Positions 11,152 to 19,159 of a DNA stretch of 64,000 nucleotides are shown here, piece by piece (within the stretch, counting starts at the first letter, position 1; every line of letters begins with the position of its first letter). The notes under the pieces were generated by a model, which saw only the letters and a program-made list of their open reading frames with translations, had not been told where the DNA came from and did no database searches. The stretch lies in assembly GCA_023261845.1 (NCBI GenBank), contig JALNJZ010000001.1, positions 188,197 to 252,196 on the forward strand, read 5' to 3'. Both the position numbers and the translations under genes were made by a program. This DNA comes from Candidatus Terraquivivens tengchongensis. Lineage in GTDB: Archaea > Thermoproteota > Nitrososphaeria_A > Caldarchaeales > Wolframiiraptoraceae.

Positions 11152-11418
11152 ATGAAGGTGGAGTTGATAGGACATCTGAAGTCTGTTGTTGGTAAAGATG
11201 TGCTCGAGCTTAAGATAGAGGGTAATGTGCCGCTCTTGGAGGTACTAAAAATACTTCCCAAAGAATTAAAAGATATTTTGCTGAAAGATGGAAAGCTTAG
11301 GCCGGGCTTCCTCCTACTCCTTAATGGTTCAGACATTCGCTCGCTCAATAAGGATGTAAAGACGATAGTCCTAGATGGGGATGTGCTAACCATAATACCT
11401 ATAATACATGGTGGCTAG
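11152..11418 (+). CDS. MoaD/ThiS/Urm1-type ubiquitin-like sulfur carrier (SAMP)
   Basis: 88 aa beta-grasp pattern with LLNG..I and DGD, ending IHGG. Confidence 0.88.
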   Translation: MKVELIGHLKSVVGKDVLELKIEGNVPLLEVLKILPKELKDILLKDGKLRPGFLLLLNGSDIRSLNKDVKTIVLDGDVLTIIPIIHGG

Positions 11419-11986
11419 TTTGAGCCACTTTATGGCCACATCTGATTTACTTGTCGGAGTCTACGAAACCAAGATAGAAAGGCAGAACTTGAGAACACTT
11501 CTAGAAAAATTAAATGAGGTTTACGAATTGTTAAGACCATCTATTTGTCAGTTTTTCAACGCTGATAGAGTAATATCTGCTCTTTATGTAACCGCTGCAG
11601 TAACTGCAGCGATAATAGCATGGGAATCTAAAATGAACATTGCCAAACGACTTGAGGTAGAATTTCTTGTTAGGTTATCAGCCCAAGATCAAATAAGCAG
11701 GGCGATAGAACTTGTAGGCATATCTTATGAGACTGAAAGGATTGGTGTCTGCATCGTATCAAAGAGTGTGGAAAGTCTCGAGATGGCAAAATCACGGCTT
11801 GAGGCATTATTGGGTTGTAAATTGATACCATTTGTTGATAACCGGAGCACTTATATACTTAATGAATTGTCAAAAATTTATGATGTACCTGAGCAGGCCT
11901 TGAAGCTCATTCAAGCCGATAGTGAATTCAAGGCCCTTGAGCTTTTTTTAATAGAGAAAATTGCAATCTCACTCATATCCAGATGA
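11408..11986 (+). CDS. cgi121: KEOPS complex subunit Cgi121-like
   Basis: QFFNADRV, NIAKRLEVEFLVRLSAQDQISRAIELVG and LIEKIA match the Cgi121 pattern. Confidence 0.8.
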   Translation: MVASLSHFMATSDLLVGVYETKIERQNLRTLLEKLNEVYELLRPSICQFFNADRVISALYVTAAVTAAIIAWESKMNIAKRLEVEFLVRLSAQDQISRAIELVGISYETERIGVCIVSKSVESLEMAKSRLEALLGCKLIPFVDNRSTYILNELSKIYDVPEQALKLIQADSEFKALELFLIEKIAISLISR

Positions 11987-12619
11987 TCACATAAGTTTTA
12001 CGTTGAGTCTTGCCATTACAATTCTATCCTTTATTGCATTTAAAGATATGGCACCCTCCCTTAGCACTTTTACTATACCTCCCTCTATTTTTACAACCGT
12101 TGAAGCTATACAATGTAGACACTTTCCTCCGTCCAACACTATCTCGACACCTTCTGCTATATGTTTATCCAGTTCTGAGGTATCACAAGCTGGTGACATT
12201 CCGCTAATATTTGCGCTAGTTCCAACAATTAGACCTCCTGAAAGTCTTGCAAGCTCTATCGCTACTTGGCTTGCCGGAACCCTTACAGCAACCGTTGGAC
12301 TTCCACAGGTTACCTTTTCGAGCGACAACTTCTTCGGTAGGACTACTGACAATGCTCCTGGCCAAAATGCAGAACAAAATTCATAAGCGACGTCATCAAA
12401 CTCCGCTACCTTCTCAAGACTTTCTATAGAATCGCCTAATATCGGAACTGGGATGTCTTTACGTCCTTTTAAGGAGAAAATCCTAGAAACTGCTGCATCA
12501 TCAAACGGGTTACATCCTAAACCATATACCGTATCGGTAGGGTATACCACAAGACCGCCATCTTTGATTATTACAGAGGCAAGTCTTATCGCTTCTCTAC
12601 TAACTTTTAGCAACCGCAT
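11987..12619 (-). CDS. sua5: L-threonylcarbamoyladenylate synthase (YrdC/TsaC domain only)
   Basis: YPTDTVYGLGC, KGR, FWPGA, VRVP, TSANISG, STVV, LREGA. Confidence 0.92.
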   Translation of the reverse strand: MRLLKVSREAIRLASVIIKDGGLVVYPTDTVYGLGCNPFDDAAVSRIFSLKGRKDIPVPILGDSIESLEKVAEFDDVAYEFCSAFWPGALSVVLPKKLSLEKVTCGSPTVAVRVPASQVAIELARLSGGLIVGTSANISGMSPACDTSELDKHIAEGVEIVLDGGKCLHCIASTVVKIEGGIVKVLREGAISLNAIKDRIVMARLNVKLM

Positions 12620-12790: not shown

Positions 12791-12885
12791 GGGACCGTAG
12801 CTCAGCATGGTTAGAGCGTTCGAGCCGTAAAACGGCAACGAAGCTGATAACCGAAAGGTCGTGGGTTCGAATCCCACCGGTCCCA
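12791..12885 (+). tRNA. tRNA-Ile(GAT) with a 20-nt intron (12823-12842) at position 30/31
   Basis: GGGACCG/CGGTCCC acceptor stem, GCTC/GAGC D stem, spliced anticodon arm TTCGG-CTGATAA-CCGAA, GTGGG-TTCGAAT-CCCAC T arm. A bulge-helix-bulge motif flanks the intron. CCA is not encoded. Confidence 0.93.
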
Positions 12886-13306: not shown

Positions 13307-13381
13307 GGGGCCGTAGTCTAGCATGGTTATGACACCTGGCTTGGGCCCAGGAGGTCCTGGGTTCGAATCCCAGCGGCCCCA
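13307..13381 (+). tRNA. tRNA-Pro(TGG), intronless
   Basis: GGGGCCG/CGGCCCC acceptor stem, CCTGG-CTTGGGC-CCAGG anticodon arm, CTGGG-TTCGAAT-CCCAG T arm. Confidence 0.96.
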
Positions 13382-13562
13382 CTAACACTTTCTCGGAAAA
13401 GTGAATCGAGGATTGAGGAAAATGATTTATTAAGGGGACAGTTAGTTCGTCCATATTTCATATGTTTTGCCGGCAGTTCTAATGGTTATGTAGTGCTCCA
13501 TAAAAATGTTATAATATAATGTTGTTAAATGTTATATATACGTATACAAATGTGAGGTATTC

Positions 13563-14297
13563 ATGCTAAGAAAAAACGTACCCAAACTTGTCGTGTTTGA
13601 CTGCGATGGTGTTCTAGTTGATGGATACGTATCTATTTTCGTTGCTAAACATCTTGGTTTCGGTGATAAACTTATATCACTATATAAAGACCTCTTAAGT
13701 TCAAGGATCAGTTTCGAGCAAGCAATGGAAAAAGCGCTAAGATTATTCATCGGTATTAAGGAGGGTGAAGTTAAAGATTTGCTTATGCGGGTCCCTCTAA
13801 TGCGTGGTGCAGAAGAGACTATAAGGATTATGAAAAACAAGGGCATAGTTGTAGGAATCATAAGCACCGGTGCATCTCAGTATTTTCTGGACATTTTAGG
13901 GGAGATGTTCAAGCTTGATTTTTTTGTTGGTACACGTGTAAGAATCGAGGATGGTGTGTTTGTTGATATAGAGCACCCTATAGTTAACTTCGAGAATAAA
14001 GGCAAAATTCTTTCCGAAATAGCATCGCGATATGGTATTCCACTTAGCGAATGTGTTGCCGTTGGAGACGATACTTCTAACATACCGCTCTTTAAACTTG
14101 TAGGTATGAGTATAATGTTTGACTCAGGATGTTTAGAGCGCGAACTCCTGGGATTAAAATTGAATATTTTTGAATGGACAAGATTGCGTTTAATACTTTG
14201 GCTTGCAAAAAGACGTGTGAAGAAAAATGCTCACTATGTCGTCAAGTCTAGAAACCTTATGGATATTTTGAATATAATTGGTGTCATCCAATCTTAA
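13563..14297 (+). CDS. HAD-IB phosphatase (phosphoserine phosphatase-like)
   Basis: FDCDGVL motif I, ISTG motif II, NK motif III, VGDDTSN motif IV. Amphipathic basic insertion near the C-terminus. Confidence 0.85.
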   Translation: MLRKNVPKLVVFDCDGVLVDGYVSIFVAKHLGFGDKLISLYKDLLSSRISFEQAMEKALRLFIGIKEGEVKDLLMRVPLMRGAEETIRIMKNKGIVVGIISTGASQYFLDILGEMFKLDFFVGTRVRIEDGVFVDIEHPIVNFENKGKILSEIASRYGIPLSECVAVGDDTSNIPLFKLVGMSIMFDSGCLERELLGLKLNIFEWTRLRLILWLAKRRVKKNAHYVVKSRNLMDILNIIGVIQS

Positions 14298-15732
14298 GTT
14301 CGAATACACATTCATCATGTCCAGTAGCTTTGCACTTTATCTCTTTCGCATATGCCGGTTCTTTGAATATTACGGACGCAGCTCCTGAAAGCGCTCCAGT
14401 GATAGCAGAACAAATTGGAATTTCTGATGAAGTATCCTTACAAAGGAAGCAATCTGGAACTCTTACCCTGAAAACATTATTGTTGACAGTTTCTACGTCA
14501 CATTTTAACCTAAATCCAAAGTAGAGCGTTAACTTCATTATTTTTGATACATACTTCATATCAAGTTTAATTAGGGGATTTTCGCCTATCTCTTGAATTG
14601 CTTCTAAGGCCCTCTGTCTGCCTATTATCTGATGAAATTCTTCCTTAATCTTAAGGAATTTTTCAATCGCTTCCTTATATTCGGCTTCTGTATAACCGAA
14701 CATGTTTTTTAGGAATTCGAACATGAGTTTTCTCTCTCTATTATAGATGCTACCTGGAATCCTTGCACCTTCTTTTATGCCCAGAATTCTAAAGAAAAGC
14801 CACGAAGGCATGTTTAAGGCAAGCTTTGTCTTAAAACTTATCTGTTCTTTCTTTATCTGTTTAATATTTTTAATCGGTTTTTCTTCAACTTCAACGACGC
14901 GTAAATATCCTTGTAGTTCCCAGACGGCTATTTTCTTTAATAAATCATTAAAACTCTCGGGAAAAAGTAATTTAATATTTAGAAGAGTTTTATCATCAAA
15001 ATGCGAGAAAAACCATAAATATTCTGTAAGGGGTTTTGTTAACTCTTTATGGCTTATTTTTAATTTTAAACCCGTAAGATTCCTCTCATAATATCTTATT
15101 CTTTCGTCCACCAATTCAGGTGAAAGTTGTATCAATCTATCGGTCATTTCACCATACCATTCAATCAAAACTCTATTATCCTTGTATTCATATTTTACAG
15201 GTCTTAAGTTCCATTCTGGATGGCAACATTTTATGGGTATGAATTCACAAACATCTAACCTTTTTGTCTGTAACTTTCTGACTTCCAGACCTCCATCAAA
15301 AATCGCTAGAATCTTTTTCTCCATTTCAGGAAATGTTCCTTTTGGTAGCAAGTAGAACTCAATAGTCCTGTTGTTTCGTATTTCATACTTCCAAGTTTCC
15401 AGTAATTTCAAGATGACTTCATGTTCATATTTTATTAAAAGGTCCGCTAAATATTCATGAATAAGCACACTCTCTTGAGCACTCCTCCTTAATTCATTAA
15501 TTGTTATGCTTATGTCGTTCAGAGTCAACGGTGTTATGAACACTACTTCTTTTGTCGGCGAACGGTTCCATTCGAATATCAACCTCATTGGTCTTTGAGT
15601 TTTTATCAAGTTCATGAGGAAATGTAGTGCTTCACCGTATCCACCATCTAAAACAAGTAGTGCAGAGCCATAATAAATGTCAACTATTTTATCGAAAATT
15701 TCGTGTCCTGTTAAAAATTTTTCTTTTTCCAT
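14284..15732 (-). CDS. V4R-domain protein with an N-terminal degenerate KaiC/RecA-like domain
   Basis: C-terminal DCFLC...PIC...GALSG...EIKCKATGHDECVF is a V4R pattern. N-terminal TGHEIFDKI...GSALLV and IFDGGLEV resemble KaiC-like ATPases, but there is no GKT Walker A. Confidence 0.75.
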   Translation of the reverse strand: MEKEKFLTGHEIFDKIVDIYYGSALLVLDGGYGEALHFLMNLIKTQRPMRLIFEWNRSPTKEVVFITPLTLNDISITINELRRSAQESVLIHEYLADLLIKYEHEVILKLLETWKYEIRNNRTIEFYLLPKGTFPEMEKKILAIFDGGLEVRKLQTKRLDVCEFIPIKCCHPEWNLRPVKYEYKDNRVLIEWYGEMTDRLIQLSPELVDERIRYYERNLTGLKLKISHKELTKPLTEYLWFFSHFDDKTLLNIKLLFPESFNDLLKKIAVWELQGYLRVVEVEEKPIKNIKQIKKEQISFKTKLALNMPSWLFFRILGIKEGARIPGSIYNRERKLMFEFLKNMFGYTEAEYKEAIEKFLKIKEEFHQIIGRQRALEAIQEIGENPLIKLDMKYVSKIMKLTLYFGFRLKCDVETVNNNVFRVRVPDCFLCKDTSSEIPICSAITGALSGAASVIFKEPAYAKEIKCKATGHDECVFELKIG

Positions 15733-15795
15733 CCTATAGTATAAAGGATTTGGTAAGATTTATCTCTTTAATTAAATTTGTGCATGAATTGCTTT

Positions 15796-17145
15796 TTAAT
15801 GACACACTTGTATTAATCGTTCTCTTAGCATGTTCCATATCGAACCCAAGTCTTCCGGCATCGTAGTGAAGGGATTTGGTGGTCTTATAAATGTCAGTAA
15901 CTGACGGAGATTCTTCTCCCTTATCAAATATTTTCTTATAGAAAAGAGTCGAAGGAAGTTGCATACACTTATGAGCGCCTCACTGTCTATGAGTTGACCA
16001 ATTCGGTATTTCAAACCATCCCTTATCATGTTCAGACCCGCTACATGCAGTGCATCACCCAACTTAATTATATCGTTAAAGATACCAGCTTTTGAAAGTA
16101 TTTTAAAGGTCTTTACTGGTTCGATTTTATGGAGATCATCATATGATAACAGACCCCTCTCTATAGCGAGAAGTATGGCGCTATTAACAGAGTTTGACAT
16201 TATATCCTCATAGGCGTCCACGACGTCATCGTATACTCCTGCTGCCTTGAACACTAATGAGACACCTTGCTTCACTAACATAATCGACGCCATCTCATCC
16301 GAGGTCAAGTCACCCAAACTATTCTCGAAGAAGTAAAGATCTATATCAAACCAAACATCGCCTATGTTCTTCTCCAATATATATTCCATGTAATCAGCCA
16401 TCGTAGGAAGTTTATTCCTTTTCTTGTCTTTATGCAATAAGGAATCTATTTGTCCCATTATCAATTTTCTGACGTCTTTGACGTATAATTCAAACGTGCC
16501 GTATAGTTTATTTTCGTTCACATTGAACATCTTATATACCCAAGTTCCGATCTCTAACGCAGAATTTTCAGCTCTTGCTACCTTATCCTTACCTAAGTTT
16601 GGTTCGTATGTGCCCGTGGTATAGGCAGATATTAGATTTCTTAGAGAGGTAAGAGCGGCATCTAAATCATGAATGTTGTCGTTCAAGTTGTCGAGTAGCT
16701 TTACGCTAGTACCAAAAGATGTTTTCGCTATGGCTGCATGAATTATTTCCTCGTAAGAGCTAATCTTATGTAAGATCGGCAGAGAGCTTATTAGACCAAT
16801 GTAGGTAGCATATACCCAGTGCTTCCGCTTCATGTAGCCCAGTCTAAGGAGTTCCTCATAATCTAAGCAAAGAGGATTCTTAGATAAGTTATGTAGCATT
16901 TCCTCATATGTGTCTAAGAGCTTTAGGAGAGTTAATACGGTGTTCTTTATCTTAAGTGAGGGGTATTTATTTAAATTAATTAAGAAAGCTAAGGCCGAAA
17001 GTTTATAGAGAAAGTTTAGACCTTCTTCTCGGCACTTTTTCTCTATCTGTAGGGTTTTATACTCTTTATAAGTTAGATTCTGTTTAAACTTAAGAGTGTA
17101 CTTTTTGATTGTTTTACATTGTTCTGTCATAATATTAATTTTCAT
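15796..17145 (-). CDS. Class I isoprenoid synthase-fold protein (prenyltransferase/terpene synthase-like)
   Basis: LLDNLND (first Asp-rich motif variant), GQIDS (GQxxD-like), Y....EK, YDDVVDAYED (second DDxxD) appear in canonical order. Sequence looks all-helical. Confidence 0.75.
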   Translation of the reverse strand: MKINIMTEQCKTIKKYTLKFKQNLTYKEYKTLQIEKKCREEGLNFLYKLSALAFLINLNKYPSLKIKNTVLTLLKLLDTYEEMLHNLSKNPLCLDYEELLRLGYMKRKHWVYATYIGLISSLPILHKISSYEEIIHAAIAKTSFGTSVKLLDNLNDNIHDLDAALTSLRNLISAYTTGTYEPNLGKDKVARAENSALEIGTWVYKMFNVNENKLYGTFELYVKDVRKLIMGQIDSLLHKDKKRNKLPTMADYMEYILEKNIGDVWFDIDLYFFENSLGDLTSDEMASIMLVKQGVSLVFKAAGVYDDVVDAYEDIMSNSVNSAILLAIERGLLSYDDLHKIEPVKTFKILSKAGIFNDIIKLGDALHVAGLNMIRDGLKYRIGQLIDSEALISVCNFLRLFSIRKYLIREKNLRQLLTFIRPPNPFTTMPEDLGSIWNMLRERLIQVCH

Positions 17146-17248: not shown

Positions 17249-18370
17249 ATGTTTAACGAGCTTGAAAGGATGGCAGCTGAGAAGGCTAAGGAGGCAGTTT
17301 ACTTAGATAAGATAGGCGCAAGGGAAAAAGCCTACGTAAAGTACAAGGAGGCTATTGACATTCTAACAAAACTTTACTTCATGACAGAAGACGATACGAT
17401 ACGCTCAGTATATCTTGAAAAGATTCGTGAATATCAGAGAAGGATTCAGCTTATGGATACAAAAAGGGTCGTGATTTCCGAAGGGGATGCTAAAACTACT
17501 GGTATTGAAGAAGGGACTGAATGGGTACTTAAAGACAGGCCCAGGGTTAACTGGGAGGATATAATAGGGATTGATGAGGCTAAGAGGGCAATAAGAGAAA
17601 GTATAGTATACCCAAAGATGAGGCCAGAATTATTCCCCTTAGGCTGGCCTACCGGTATACTGTTGTTCGGACCCCCTGGCTGCGGTAAGACACTCATAGG
17701 CGCTGCCGTTGCTAACGAAATAGACGCCGCGTTCTTCTACGTGGATGCTGCAACCGTCATGTCAAAATGGTTAGGAGAGTCTGAGAAAAATATAGCACAG
17801 CTTTTCGCAACGGCTAGGACCGCATGTAAAAAACAGGGTGCGGCCATAATCTTTATCGATGAAATAGATTCGTTGACATCGGTTAGATATATTGAAGTGG
17901 GTGGTGAAGCTAGGGCGAGGAATCAACTACTAAAAGAAATGGATAGTTTAACCGAAAAGGGCAAGAGGGAGTACCTATATGTGATAGGAGCAACAAACAA
18001 GCCTTGGATGCTCGATGAACCTTTCATAAGACGCTTTCAGAAGCGAATATACGTTCCTTTACCAAATCTTAATGCGAGAGCAGCCTTGTTTTCTTATTAT
18101 ACCAAAGACCTTAAGCTTGGTCAATCTGTTGATACATGGCAACTTGCCGTTATGACAGAAGGATATTCAGCGGCCGATATCCATGATATTTGTATGGAAG
18201 TTCAGCTGAAGGTCACCAGAGAATTTTTTGAAGAAGGGAACGCCGAAAAGACGGAGCCCAGAGTGATAGAAATGCAAGACTTCTTAGAGATTATTAGTAA
18301 GAGAAAATCATCAATAATTTTAGAAAATCTCAAGAAGTTAGAGGAGTGGGCAGCCAAGTACGCAACTTAG
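17249..18370 (+). CDS. cdvC: Vps4/CdvC AAA+ ATPase with N-terminal MIT domain
   Basis: MIT helices (A..AV..D..G...AY..Y..AI), FPLGWP, GPPGCGKT, IFIDEID, MSKWLGESEK, ATNKPW.LDEPFIRRF. Confidence 0.92.
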   Translation: MFNELERMAAEKAKEAVYLDKIGAREKAYVKYKEAIDILTKLYFMTEDDTIRSVYLEKIREYQRRIQLMDTKRVVISEGDAKTTGIEEGTEWVLKDRPRVNWEDIIGIDEAKRAIRESIVYPKMRPELFPLGWPTGILLFGPPGCGKTLIGAAVANEIDAAFFYVDAATVMSKWLGESEKNIAQLFATARTACKKQGAAIIFIDEIDSLTSVRYIEVGGEARARNQLLKEMDSLTEKGKREYLYVIGATNKPWMLDEPFIRRFQKRIYVPLPNLNARAALFSYYTKDLKLGQSVDTWQLAVMTEGYSAADIHDICMEVQLKVTREFFEEGNAEKTEPRVIEMQDFLEIISKRKSSIILENLKKLEEWAAKYAT

Positions 18371-18376
18371 AAGTTT

Positions 18377-19159
18377 TTATGTCATCTCGGCACTTTGTAC
18401 CTCTATTAACCCTTTTTCTTGAAGGCTACTTATAACAACTTTTACTTGTGATATATTAAGTCCAAGTTCTGACGCGCATTTTGCTATGTCCAACTCATCA
18501 CCACACTTCATAATATAGGAGTAAACCATACGCTCCTCTTCTGTCAGAACTGGTACCTCTGGGAAGTTTTTCCTCACCTGCTCTGCCGCTATCCTTCTTG
18601 CTTCTTCTAGGATTCCTTCCGCGTCTTTATTGATCTCGATATTACCAGTTGATGTTGTATCAACATATGCTGAAGATGAAGATGTGAAGTCTTCTATCGT
18701 TTCTGCTAGTTCTCTGAGACTATTTGATGCTTCAGGAACGACAAGCGATACTTCCTTCTCAACCGCATCTATGATTGATGTTAAGGGAACTATTAGGCCC
18801 ATTACTTCACCTAGCTCTAGTATCGTTTCAAGCCTAACCTTTATCTGTTCAAGGACTAGACAGCACCTCATAACTATGTCTGCTAACCTTTTTATCTCAG
18901 CTATTTCAACTGCATACATTTTGGCCCTTTCATTATCCTTAGCAATTAAAGCATCTATGCATCTTTCGAAGTATTCTTTGCTTCTAGATAACATGTTCTG
19001 ATATCTTATCCGTAACTTGTCAACTTGGACGGATAAGTTCGTTAAAGAGTCCTCAATCTTCTGTACCAGAGTATCATAGTTTTGAGTAACTATATTGCCT
19101 TGGCTTTCGGATTTTGGGACGAGTTTCTCTTGAATACGCCTTAAGGAAAACCTTACCAA
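18377..19159 (-). CDS. cdvB: ESCRT-III/CdvB-like protein with C-terminal winged helix
   Basis: Snf7-like core (RAKMYAVEIAEIK, LEQIKVRLETI, ILEEA), MIM2-like FPEVP, C-terminal wH (VYSYI...CASELG...LQEKGLI). Adjacent to Vps4. Confidence 0.85.
   Translation of the reverse strand: MVRFSLRRIQEKLVPKSESQGNIVTQNYDTLVQKIEDSLTNLSVQVDKLRIRYQNMLSRSKEYFERCIDALIAKDNERAKMYAVEIAEIKRLADIVMRCCLVLEQIKVRLETILELGEVMGLIVPLTSIIDAVEKEVSLVVPEASNSLRELAETIEDFTSSSSAYVDTTSTGNIEINKDAEGILEEARRIAAEQVRKNFPEVPVLTEEERMVYSYIMKCGDELDIAKCASELGLNISQVKVVISSLQEKGLIEVQSAEMT

Follow-up and report, generated by a model that had tools for sequence, protein, structure and literature searches.

Three adjacent genes of the hot-spring archaeon Candidatus Terraquivivens tengchongensis form an AT-rich block that probably constitutes an undescribed isoprenoid module; two of the three keep together in several archaeal lineages. 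The block lies in a 64,000-nucleotide stretch of the genome, which is referred to here as the window. It encodes an enzyme-like protein of 449 residues predicted to have a class I isoprenoid-synthase fold, a sensor-like protein of 482 residues in which a KaiC-like domain is joined to a V4R domain, and a HAD-IB family phosphatase. What is new is a family within the isoprenoid-synthase superfamily that is partnered in an undescribed way with a KaiC/V4R protein; a search of the accessible literature found no description of V4R domains linked to prenyl enzymes. The genome that carries the window is 1.22 Mb in size and 99.4% complete, and its nearest relatives are named Candidatus Terraquivivens (Wolframiiraptoraceae, Nitrososphaerota). 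We describe below the folds, motifs, conserved linkage, common history, patchy distribution, and odd base composition of the block, and then ask what the module may do.

The arrangement is not a chance one, since several archaeal lineages have the enzyme gene and the V4R gene as a pair. An earlier note on this DNA had made co-occurrence elsewhere a check on its proposal of a three-gene system, and the trio is indeed present in all seven genomes of the genus (7/7, the window genome included) and at seven Methylarchaceae-like loci. In 6/6 genus relatives, the three genes stand side by side in the order glmS-cdvB-cdvC-enzyme-V4R-HAD-orf74-sua5-cgi121. The search for relatives covered 60 genomes, among them the six of the own genus, 11 of a second family of the same order (f4), and 28 others of the own family. 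The enzyme was found in 6/6, 6/11, and 0/28 of these genomes, respectively, and the V4R protein in 6/6, 9/11, and 0/28. The HAD-IB phosphatase was found in 6/6 genomes of the genus and 0/11 of the second family, and the 28 others of the own family yielded one weak match (28% identity, in an 898-aa frame); the 54 relatives outside the genus hold no orthologue, the search giving two weak matches of 26–28% identity. These data support the view that the HAD tracks the enzyme/V4R pair within the own family. Inside the genus, the members of the trio are 43–81% identical, compared with 80–96% for the flanking genes. The trio also forms two deep subtypes within the genus.

The partners of the enzyme change from lineage to lineage, as counted over 35 loci that hold the enzyme gene. 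The V4R gene lies beside it in 25/35 loci from six lineages; the ten loci without a V4R gene comprise three at a contig edge, six of Theionarchaea type, and one from a groundwater genome. HAD-IB is adjacent in 13/35 loci, all of them Terraquivivens or Methylarchaceae-like, and a membrane-protein gene intervenes between the pair and the HAD in four to six of these 13. An unrelated phosphatase of the HAD_2 family sits inside the cluster in five further loci, all from Methanomethylicia, bringing the loci with a HAD of either kind to 18/35. HAD-IB was not found beside the pair in four of the six lineages that have the pair, one of which carries the different HAD. Two recurrent partners go beyond those listed in the earlier note: a UbiA prenyltransferase, adjacent in 11/35 loci (three sequence clusters, four lineages), and a stand-alone, single-domain KaiC ATPase (PF06745, 2e-55), adjacent in 11/35. 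A HAD and a UbiA occur together in the same locus in 0/35 cases. In the second family of the order, six loci carry both UbiA and the enzyme between the V4R gene and the KaiC gene and three carry neither, so that the data tie the enzyme to UbiA as well. The nearest relative of the cluster KaiC in the window genome lies at C2:152560-153318 (47–50% identity, versus ~30% for the other KaiC paralogues); neither this gene nor a UbiE-like methyltransferase of the same genome has isoprenoid neighbors.

Two side observations concern these neighborhoods. In the second family (nine loci, L022-L027 and L260-L262), a TrmB-family regulator and a UbiE/COQ5-type methyltransferase are encoded ahead of the V4R gene every time; as all nine belong to a single family, they are not independent. 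With UbiA added, these genes resemble a portion of a prenylquinone-type gene set. The Methylarchaceae-like loci carry, between the V4R gene and the HAD, membrane proteins of two families with about five predicted transmembrane segments and no Pfam match (L034:4545-5108, L035:6034-6768), which may be partners of the module in the membrane.

The enzyme and the V4R protein appear to have traveled together. Their trees show the same split, in which the copies from family f4, although of the same order, are separated from the Terraquivivens copies. In the V4R tree, Terraquivivens is sister to the Methylarchaceae-like set with a support of 98 in the Shimodaira–Hasegawa-like approximate likelihood ratio test (SH-aLRT); in the enzyme tree, the clade that unites Terraquivivens with the Methylarchaceae-like loci is fully supported and includes the loci of Theionarchaea type and from groundwater as well. 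Linkage and congruent trees across six lineages support a common history and a functional tie between the two proteins. The base composition of the block is equally distinctive. Its GC content is 36.0%, against 45.0% for the genome, which places it at the 0.26th percentile of 1960 genome segments of 3.6 kb, and the GC content of each of the three genes is among the lowest 0.3–1.3% of 794 long open reading frames (ORFs). The earlier note had seen an AT-richer block that begins with the synthase directly after tRNA-Pro(TGG), and regarded it as an acquired system. The AT-richness is confirmed and the gene order corrected: the gene adjoining the tRNA is the HAD, and the synthase-like gene stands at the far end of the block, beside cdvC. 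The block looks transferred between archaeal lineages because its GC content is low, it was not found in 28 other genomes of its own family, and both trees place it with another lineage; acquisition is supported as far as such sharing goes.

The family of the 449-residue protein is rare and is recognized through its structure and weak profile matches only. When 1.84 billion cluster representatives were scanned exhaustively with HMMER, 61 clusters (50% identity) proved to belong to it, and the named relatives are all annotated as ‘hypothetical’, from Nitrososphaerota, Methylarchaceae, Theionarchaea, and Methanofastidiosia, with further members in Methanomethylicia and Bathyarchaeia. The AlphaFold2 (AF2) model is all-helical and confident, with a predicted local distance difference test score (pLDDT) of 87.3 and a predicted template-modeling score (pTM) of 0.87. 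A Foldseek comparison of this model with the PDB retrieved bacterial and fungal class I terpene synthases (E from 2e-4, probability 1.00), with template-modeling (TM) scores by target of 0.48–0.66 and an archaeal geranylgeranyl diphosphate (GGPP) synthase at rank 5. The modeled protein thus has the class I isoprenoid-synthase fold and belongs to that superfamily. The family profile (A1) points the same way when compared with the PDB, with matches to GGPP-synthase domains that belong to bifunctional enzymes of fungi (E 6e-4) and to an archaeal GGPP synthase (E 0.26). The broader family profile (A2) gave a chance match only against the PDB (E 1.5) and, against a large protein collection at E<=10, nothing beyond the family itself.

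Conservation within the family concentrates on charged residues. The 35 sequences share the invariant residues K106, K108, K141, K149, D152-N153-x-x-D156, G231-Q232, K259, D267, D269, K300, D306-D307-x-x-D310-x-x-x-D314, R399, R404, and K405. When the alignment is widened to 46 sequences, K141, D152, D156, D269, D307, D314, and R404 are still invariant, and most of the other columns remain at least 90% conserved. The protein also has a WxDIDL motif, as well as roughly 100 extra, conserved residues at its N-terminus. The recorded gene product has 367 residues and starts 82 residues downstream of the start of the 449-aa frame. The longer frame is probably correct, since residues 40–100 are conserved across the family and confidently modeled, and the start is most likely M1 or M6. 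The earlier note had allowed that the synthase might be the housekeeping GGPP synthase. It is not, as the genome has two canonical PF00348 genes elsewhere; three UbiA genes are likewise found outside the block.

Two branches of the superfamily come into question for this protein, and it qualifies as a member of neither. The trans-isoprenyl diphosphate synthases (PF00348) share with it the all-helical class I fold, a pair of acidic motifs separated by about 150 residues, and the order of a GQ motif and a Lys; they differ in having a DDxxD first motif followed by RRG, in lacking the extra N-terminal region and WxDIDL, and in length (~280–390 residues in the canonical copies of this order). PF00348 gives weak matches in 10/35 family members, the best at 1.9e-5, whereas the window protein has no match at E<=10. 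Aligned by hhalign with 25 canonical polyprenyl synthases of this order, the family matches Region I, the first aspartate-rich motif (FARM), the GQ motif, the Lys, and the second aspartate-rich motif (SARM) in order, at a P of 0.0052 and a low probability of 6.9%. The first motif departs from the PF00348 pattern DDxx(xx)D plus RRG, reading an invariant D152-N153-x-x-D156 without RRG after it; the second agrees with DDxxD, D306-D307-x-x-D310 being invariant in the 35 sequences and aligned to the SARM. The DDxxD plus NSE/DTE signature of canonical class I terpene synthases is likewise absent, the first motif being DNxxD and the second of DDxxD type, and PF19086 matches 1/35 family members at 0.015. 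Canonical DDxxD motifs are carried by the archaeal terpene synthases described in a recent preprint (10.1101/2024.01.29.577750).

The other branch comprises the class IB ‘large terpene’ synthases (BalTS and Bacillus subtilis YtpB; DUF2600), whose motifs are given as DYLDNLxD and DY(F,L,W)IDxxED in PMC5939612. Fold class, LDNLxD, D-x3-D-x2-E-D, and a similar spacing are common to these enzymes and the 449-residue protein. KLLDNLND agrees with LDNLxD, although the archaeal family has an invariant Lys where the published motif begins with Asp; DDVVDAYED fits D-x3-D-x2-E-D with different hydrophobic positions. To represent the class, metagenome DNA was fetched with the back-translated first motif; both motifs occurred in one ORF at 40/80 loci, and 25 complete ORFs with both motifs were aligned (A4). 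All 25/25 match PF10776, which serves as a control and marks this class as bacterial, in contrast to the archaeal 449-aa family. PF10776 matches neither the 449-residue protein, nor the 35 family members, nor any protein of the genome, even at E<=10. By hhalign, the family aligns with these 25 DUF2600 proteins at both motifs over 230 columns, with a P of 0.071 (not significant, and weaker than that obtained with the polyprenyl synthases) and a probability of 0.8%. In these alignments, the counterparts of the DNxxD motif are the polyprenyl-synthase FARM and the class IB motif LDNLxD, and those of YDDVVDAYED are the SARM and DYxIDxxED. The 449-residue protein represents a separate, divergent family that qualifies for neither branch.

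The 482-residue protein combines two domains that were recognized by different means. Pfam finds V4R (PF02830) alone, at residues 422–480 (2.2e-14, 53.7 bits against a cut-off of 31). The KaiC likeness was detected by structure only: the AF2 model, built from an alignment of 24 homologues (pLDDT 85.8), matches KaiC in Foldseek at E 1.7e-8 with a TM score of 0.64 normalized to the KaiC C1 domain, and Pfam KaiC (PF06745) gives no match even at E<=10. At the place of Walker A stands GSALLVLDGGYGEA, which lacks GKT, and GK(T/S) occurs at that position in none of the 24 homologues; on this alignment and model, the N-terminal domain is an inactivated KaiC. It shares the RecA/KaiC fold with KaiC-like ATPases and with iKaiC domains, a term that appears in a footnote to a table of PMC5847659, and differs from them in lacking both Walker A and a Pfam KaiC match. 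In the V4R part, C428, C431, C441, E464, C467, and C475 are invariant in the 24 homologues, and the family profile (A3) gives 6.4e-5 for MJ1460 (2osd) and 0.029 for the phenol sensor MopR. The spacing of C441, E464, C467, and C475 is 23-3-8, equal to that of the MopR zinc site. The NCBIfam MsvR model matches residues 381–478 at 6.5e-10, with 39 bits, far under its cut-off of 220. The Pfam V4R match and the conserved Cys/Glu columns are thus common to the 482-residue protein and the V4R sensors MJ1460, MopR/PoxR, and MsvR; the protein differs from these in an extra invariant CxxC and in the fusion of V4R to a dead KaiC domain, where the known sensors have AAA+/HTH (helix-turn-helix) or plain HTH. 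The helical middle part may be a winged helix, as residues 213–301 weakly resemble winged-helix models (TM 0.27–0.31, under 0.5), and no HTH family matches the protein at E<=10. A second paralogue family has only the dead-KaiC part in common with it (residues ~4–280) and a different C-terminus, in open frames of 448–518 aa; it was seen as second loci in eight genomes (G037, G040, G043, G046, G048, G052, G056, and G058).

The phosphatase matches HAD (PF00702) at 1.2e-13 and exceeds the cut-off of the HAD-IB subfamily model TIGR01488 (71.1 bits against 45). Its best NCBIfam match is the SerB equivalog TIGR00338 (106.5 bits, E 1.5e-30), under the cut-off of 144.15, and it likewise scores under the cut-off of an archaeal PSP-like model (82.5 against 151.9 bits). 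Motifs I–IV are present with the nucleophile Asp, and the catalytic residues D13, D15, S101, K146, D169, D170, and N173 are invariant in 11 orthologues, the first two as D13-x-D15 and the last three within G-D169-D170-x-S-N173. With HAD-IB/SerB enzymes it shares the four HAD motifs and the IB cap; it differs from SerB in scoring below the equivalog cut-off, in its motif I (DCDGV), in a conserved C-terminal extension of about 55 residues, and in a distribution that tracks the synthase/V4R pair. The orthologue of one genus species (G004:C22:102753-103478) contains an in-frame TAG and could reflect a pseudogene, a sequencing error, or recoding.

Trans-isoprenyl diphosphate synthases are often paired with UbiA-family transferases, the donors of UbiA enzymes are prenyl diphosphates, and phosphate removal is the reaction of HAD enzymes. 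Because of these activities, and because the two partners never co-occur, a product that keeps its diphosphate gives the simplest scheme. The explanation that we favor, if only tentatively when taken whole, is therefore one in which a special prenyl diphosphate comes from the enzyme and is processed by a HAD or a UbiA, and the V4R protein binds the lipid or a related ligand. The enzyme would bind a prenyl diphosphate through Mg2+ held by DNxxD (152–156) and DDxxDxxxD (306–314), with many invariant Lys and Arg residues available for the diphosphate, and would work like a trans-prenyl diphosphate synthase. In Terraquivivens and in the Methylarchaceae-like lineage, the HAD-IB phosphatase would then remove phosphate to give a prenol-type lipid; elsewhere, UbiA would instead move the prenyl group to an acceptor. 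The Zn/Cys-type V4R pocket may bind this lipid or a related hydrophobic ligand, and the dead KaiC domain could couple the ligand state to KaiC-type ATPases, which are adjacent in one clade and have their nearest relative here in the KaiC gene at C2. Substrate, product, order of steps, ligand binding, and signaling are all things that we infer.

Several observations weigh against this scheme. On the side of the enzyme, Pfam and NCBIfam have no match to the 449-residue protein, even at E<=10, the hhalign probability against polyprenyl synthases is low, and chain elongation is doubtful because Asn replaces the second Asp of the FARM and the RRG of chain-elongating synthases is absent. The class IB-like motif fit would point to a diphosphate-removing terpene synthase, and in a protein language model search the nearest named clusters were DUF2600 (tetraprenyl-beta-curcumene synthase, PF10776; score 0.90, 172 shared features). 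On the side of the partners, the block of the window contains neither a UbiA nor a KaiC gene, the V4R protein is missing from the Theionarchaea-type loci, which do have the enzyme, and three second-family genomes keep DUF996-TrmB-UbiE-V4R-KaiC-presenilin-CitG intact without UbiA and the enzyme. V4R and KaiC thus persist without the enzyme, and the sensor therefore does not depend on it. The HAD, for its part, lies on the opposite strand, is the sole SerB-like gene in a genome with PGDH-like dehydrogenases, and could serve serine synthesis. The earlier note's pairing of a protein that makes a molecule with one that senses it is consequently supported only in part, as the three V4R/KaiC genomes and the Theionarchaea-type loci speak against a strict form of it.

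The rival explanations draw on the same observations. A class IB-type terpene synthase in the manner of BalTS/YtpB would ionize a long prenyl diphosphate and release a hydrocarbon or an alcohol, V4R would bind the terpene, and HAD and UbiA would have other substrates. The LDNLND and D306-x3-D310-x2-E-D314 motifs resemble those published for class IB (PMC5939612), hhalign aligns both, the language model places PF10776 nearest, the top Foldseek matches are terpene synthases, RRG is missing after the first motif, and archaeal terpene synthases have recently been reported (10.1101/2024.01.29.577750). We nonetheless consider this account somewhat unlikely: PF10776 does not match, the hhalign score is the poorer of the two, the first Asp of DYLDNLxD is replaced by Lys, BalTS is not among the 35 Foldseek matches listed (ranks 1–50), and the joint gain or loss of enzyme and UbiA, together with the mutual exclusivity of HAD and UbiA, fits a product that keeps its phosphate. 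The 482-residue protein might alternatively be a transcription or redox regulator of its neighbors, of MsvR/MopR type, that senses an aromatic ligand or thiol oxidation. Such a role would agree with the MsvR and MopR profile matches, the five invariant Cys residues, the methyltransferase and TrmB-family regulator that flank the V4R gene in nine f4 loci, and the persistence of V4R and KaiC genes without the enzyme, while the winged-helix likeness of the middle part is a lead only. The absence of any HTH family match, the distance of the MsvR score from its cut-off, and TM scores under 0.5 count against it, as do the linkage and congruent trees, which need a functional tie with the enzyme; we judge it unlikely.

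The place of the phosphatase is open to a similar doubt, in that the enzyme and the V4R protein could be the sole unit and the HAD a housekeeping enzyme of phosphoserine-phosphatase type that traveled with the block. In favor of this, serB is its best NCBIfam match, no other SerB-like gene exists in the genome, and PGDH-like dehydrogenases are represented by three frames, one of which contains an internal TAG (C6:42167-43357). The HAD gene is also convergent with the pair and so is not in the same transcript, and HAD-IB was not found in clade A, Theionarchaea-type, or groundwater loci. The explanation is nevertheless improbable to us, as the protein falls below both phosphoserine-phosphatase cut-offs, has no orthologue among those found in 28 other own-family genomes that would need the same step, and is next to the pair at every one of the 13 loci in its two lineages, and as an unrelated HAD occurs within the Methanomethylicia cluster. 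Much bolder is an isoprenoid signaling system, in which the enzyme and HAD or UbiA would make a diffusible signal, either a prenol or a small prenylated molecule, and the dead-KaiC/V4R receptor would pass it to KaiC ATPases. We give this little credence; if it were true, genomes with receptor and KaiC but no synthase cassette would be ‘listeners’, and the fast divergence of the trio within the genus (43–81% versus 80–96%) would reflect joint diversification of signal and receptor. A defense role was dropped because PADLOC models gave no match to the three proteins. Against these alternatives, the scheme of a special prenyl diphosphate that is processed and then bound by V4R keeps our tentative preference.

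The features of the block are collected in Table 1. Two distances reported in the earlier note agree exactly with the ORF coordinates, namely the 63 nt from the stop of the synthase-like gene to the start of the V4R gene on the same strand and the 14-nt overlap of the convergent V4R and HAD genes (14284-14297). Its four domain calls also hold, the isoprenoid-synthase fold, KaiC-like, and V4R by Foldseek and Pfam and the HAD by PF00702 and TIGR01488.

Table 1. Features of the three-gene block and its borders, in positions of the window
Feature	Position	Strand	Evidence and remarks
tRNA-Pro(TGG)	13307-13382	+	ARAGORN; Rfam RF00005, 67.9 bits; left border of the AT-rich block
HAD-IB family phosphatase, 244 aa, SerB-like	13563-14297	+	ORF, PF00702, TIGR01488
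482-aa sensor-like protein (KaiC-like fold and V4R)	14284-15732	-	ORF, AF2 and Foldseek, PF02830
V4R domain region, residues 375-482 of the 482-aa protein	14287-14610	-	PF02830, alignment, profile search
Inactivated KaiC-like domain (predicted), ~residues 1-200 of the 482-aa protein	15133-15732	-	Foldseek, alignment
63-nt spacer between synthase-like gene and V4R gene	15733-15795	-	AT-rich, TATA-like stretches; promoter role only putative
449-aa protein, class I isoprenoid-synthase fold (predicted), unclassified archaeal family	15796-17145	-	ORF, AF2 and Foldseek, profile
Second acidic motif YDDVVDAYED, residues 305-314 of the 449-aa protein	16204-16233	-	Alignment, hhalign
First acidic motif KLLDNLND, residues 149-156 of the 449-aa protein	16678-16701	-	Alignment, hhalign
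cdvC/Vps4	17249-18370	+	MIT and AAA, 3.2e-36

At the right border, cdvC/Vps4 adjoins a protein of 260 aa that ends in a TrmB-like winged helix and is probably CdvB (window 17249-19159). In eight genomes of other genera of the family, the gene next to cdvC is cdvB in six and glmS in two, none of the window genes upstream of cdvC was found, and the border of the block on the cdvC side is precisely where synteny with the window is lost. A simple insertion site is not demonstrable, as synteny already ends at cdvC in these eight genomes. A mobile element is unsupported, as there is no copy of the tRNA-Pro 3' end at the far border and no integrase in the block. On the left, a 95-nt tRNA at 12791-12885 (+) scores 56.2 bits with the Rfam tRNA model, and ARAGORN names no anticodon for it; its last 30 nt (3') are 90% identical to tRNA-Pro(TGG), so that it is probably intron-bearing and perhaps a further Pro isoacceptor. 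Farther left of the tRNAs, the KEOPS and t6A genes cgi121 (PF08617) and sua5 (PF01300) lie back to back at 11408-12619.

To our knowledge, the isoprenoid chemistry of archaea outside membrane-lipid synthesis has hardly been charted. Reports of the first terpene synthases from archaea are just beginning to appear (10.1101/2024.01.29.577750). Against this background stands a rare family that has escaped the curated models, with a predicted class I fold, intact but unusual metal-binding motifs, and partners that vary by lineage (UbiA, two HADs, KaiC, and V4R). The 449-aa family is a concrete target for enzyme discovery, and the block is a clear case of a small gene set shared between thermophilic archaeal lineages. 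The module may also give a first handle on the signals to which archaeal V4R domains and inactivated KaiC domains respond.

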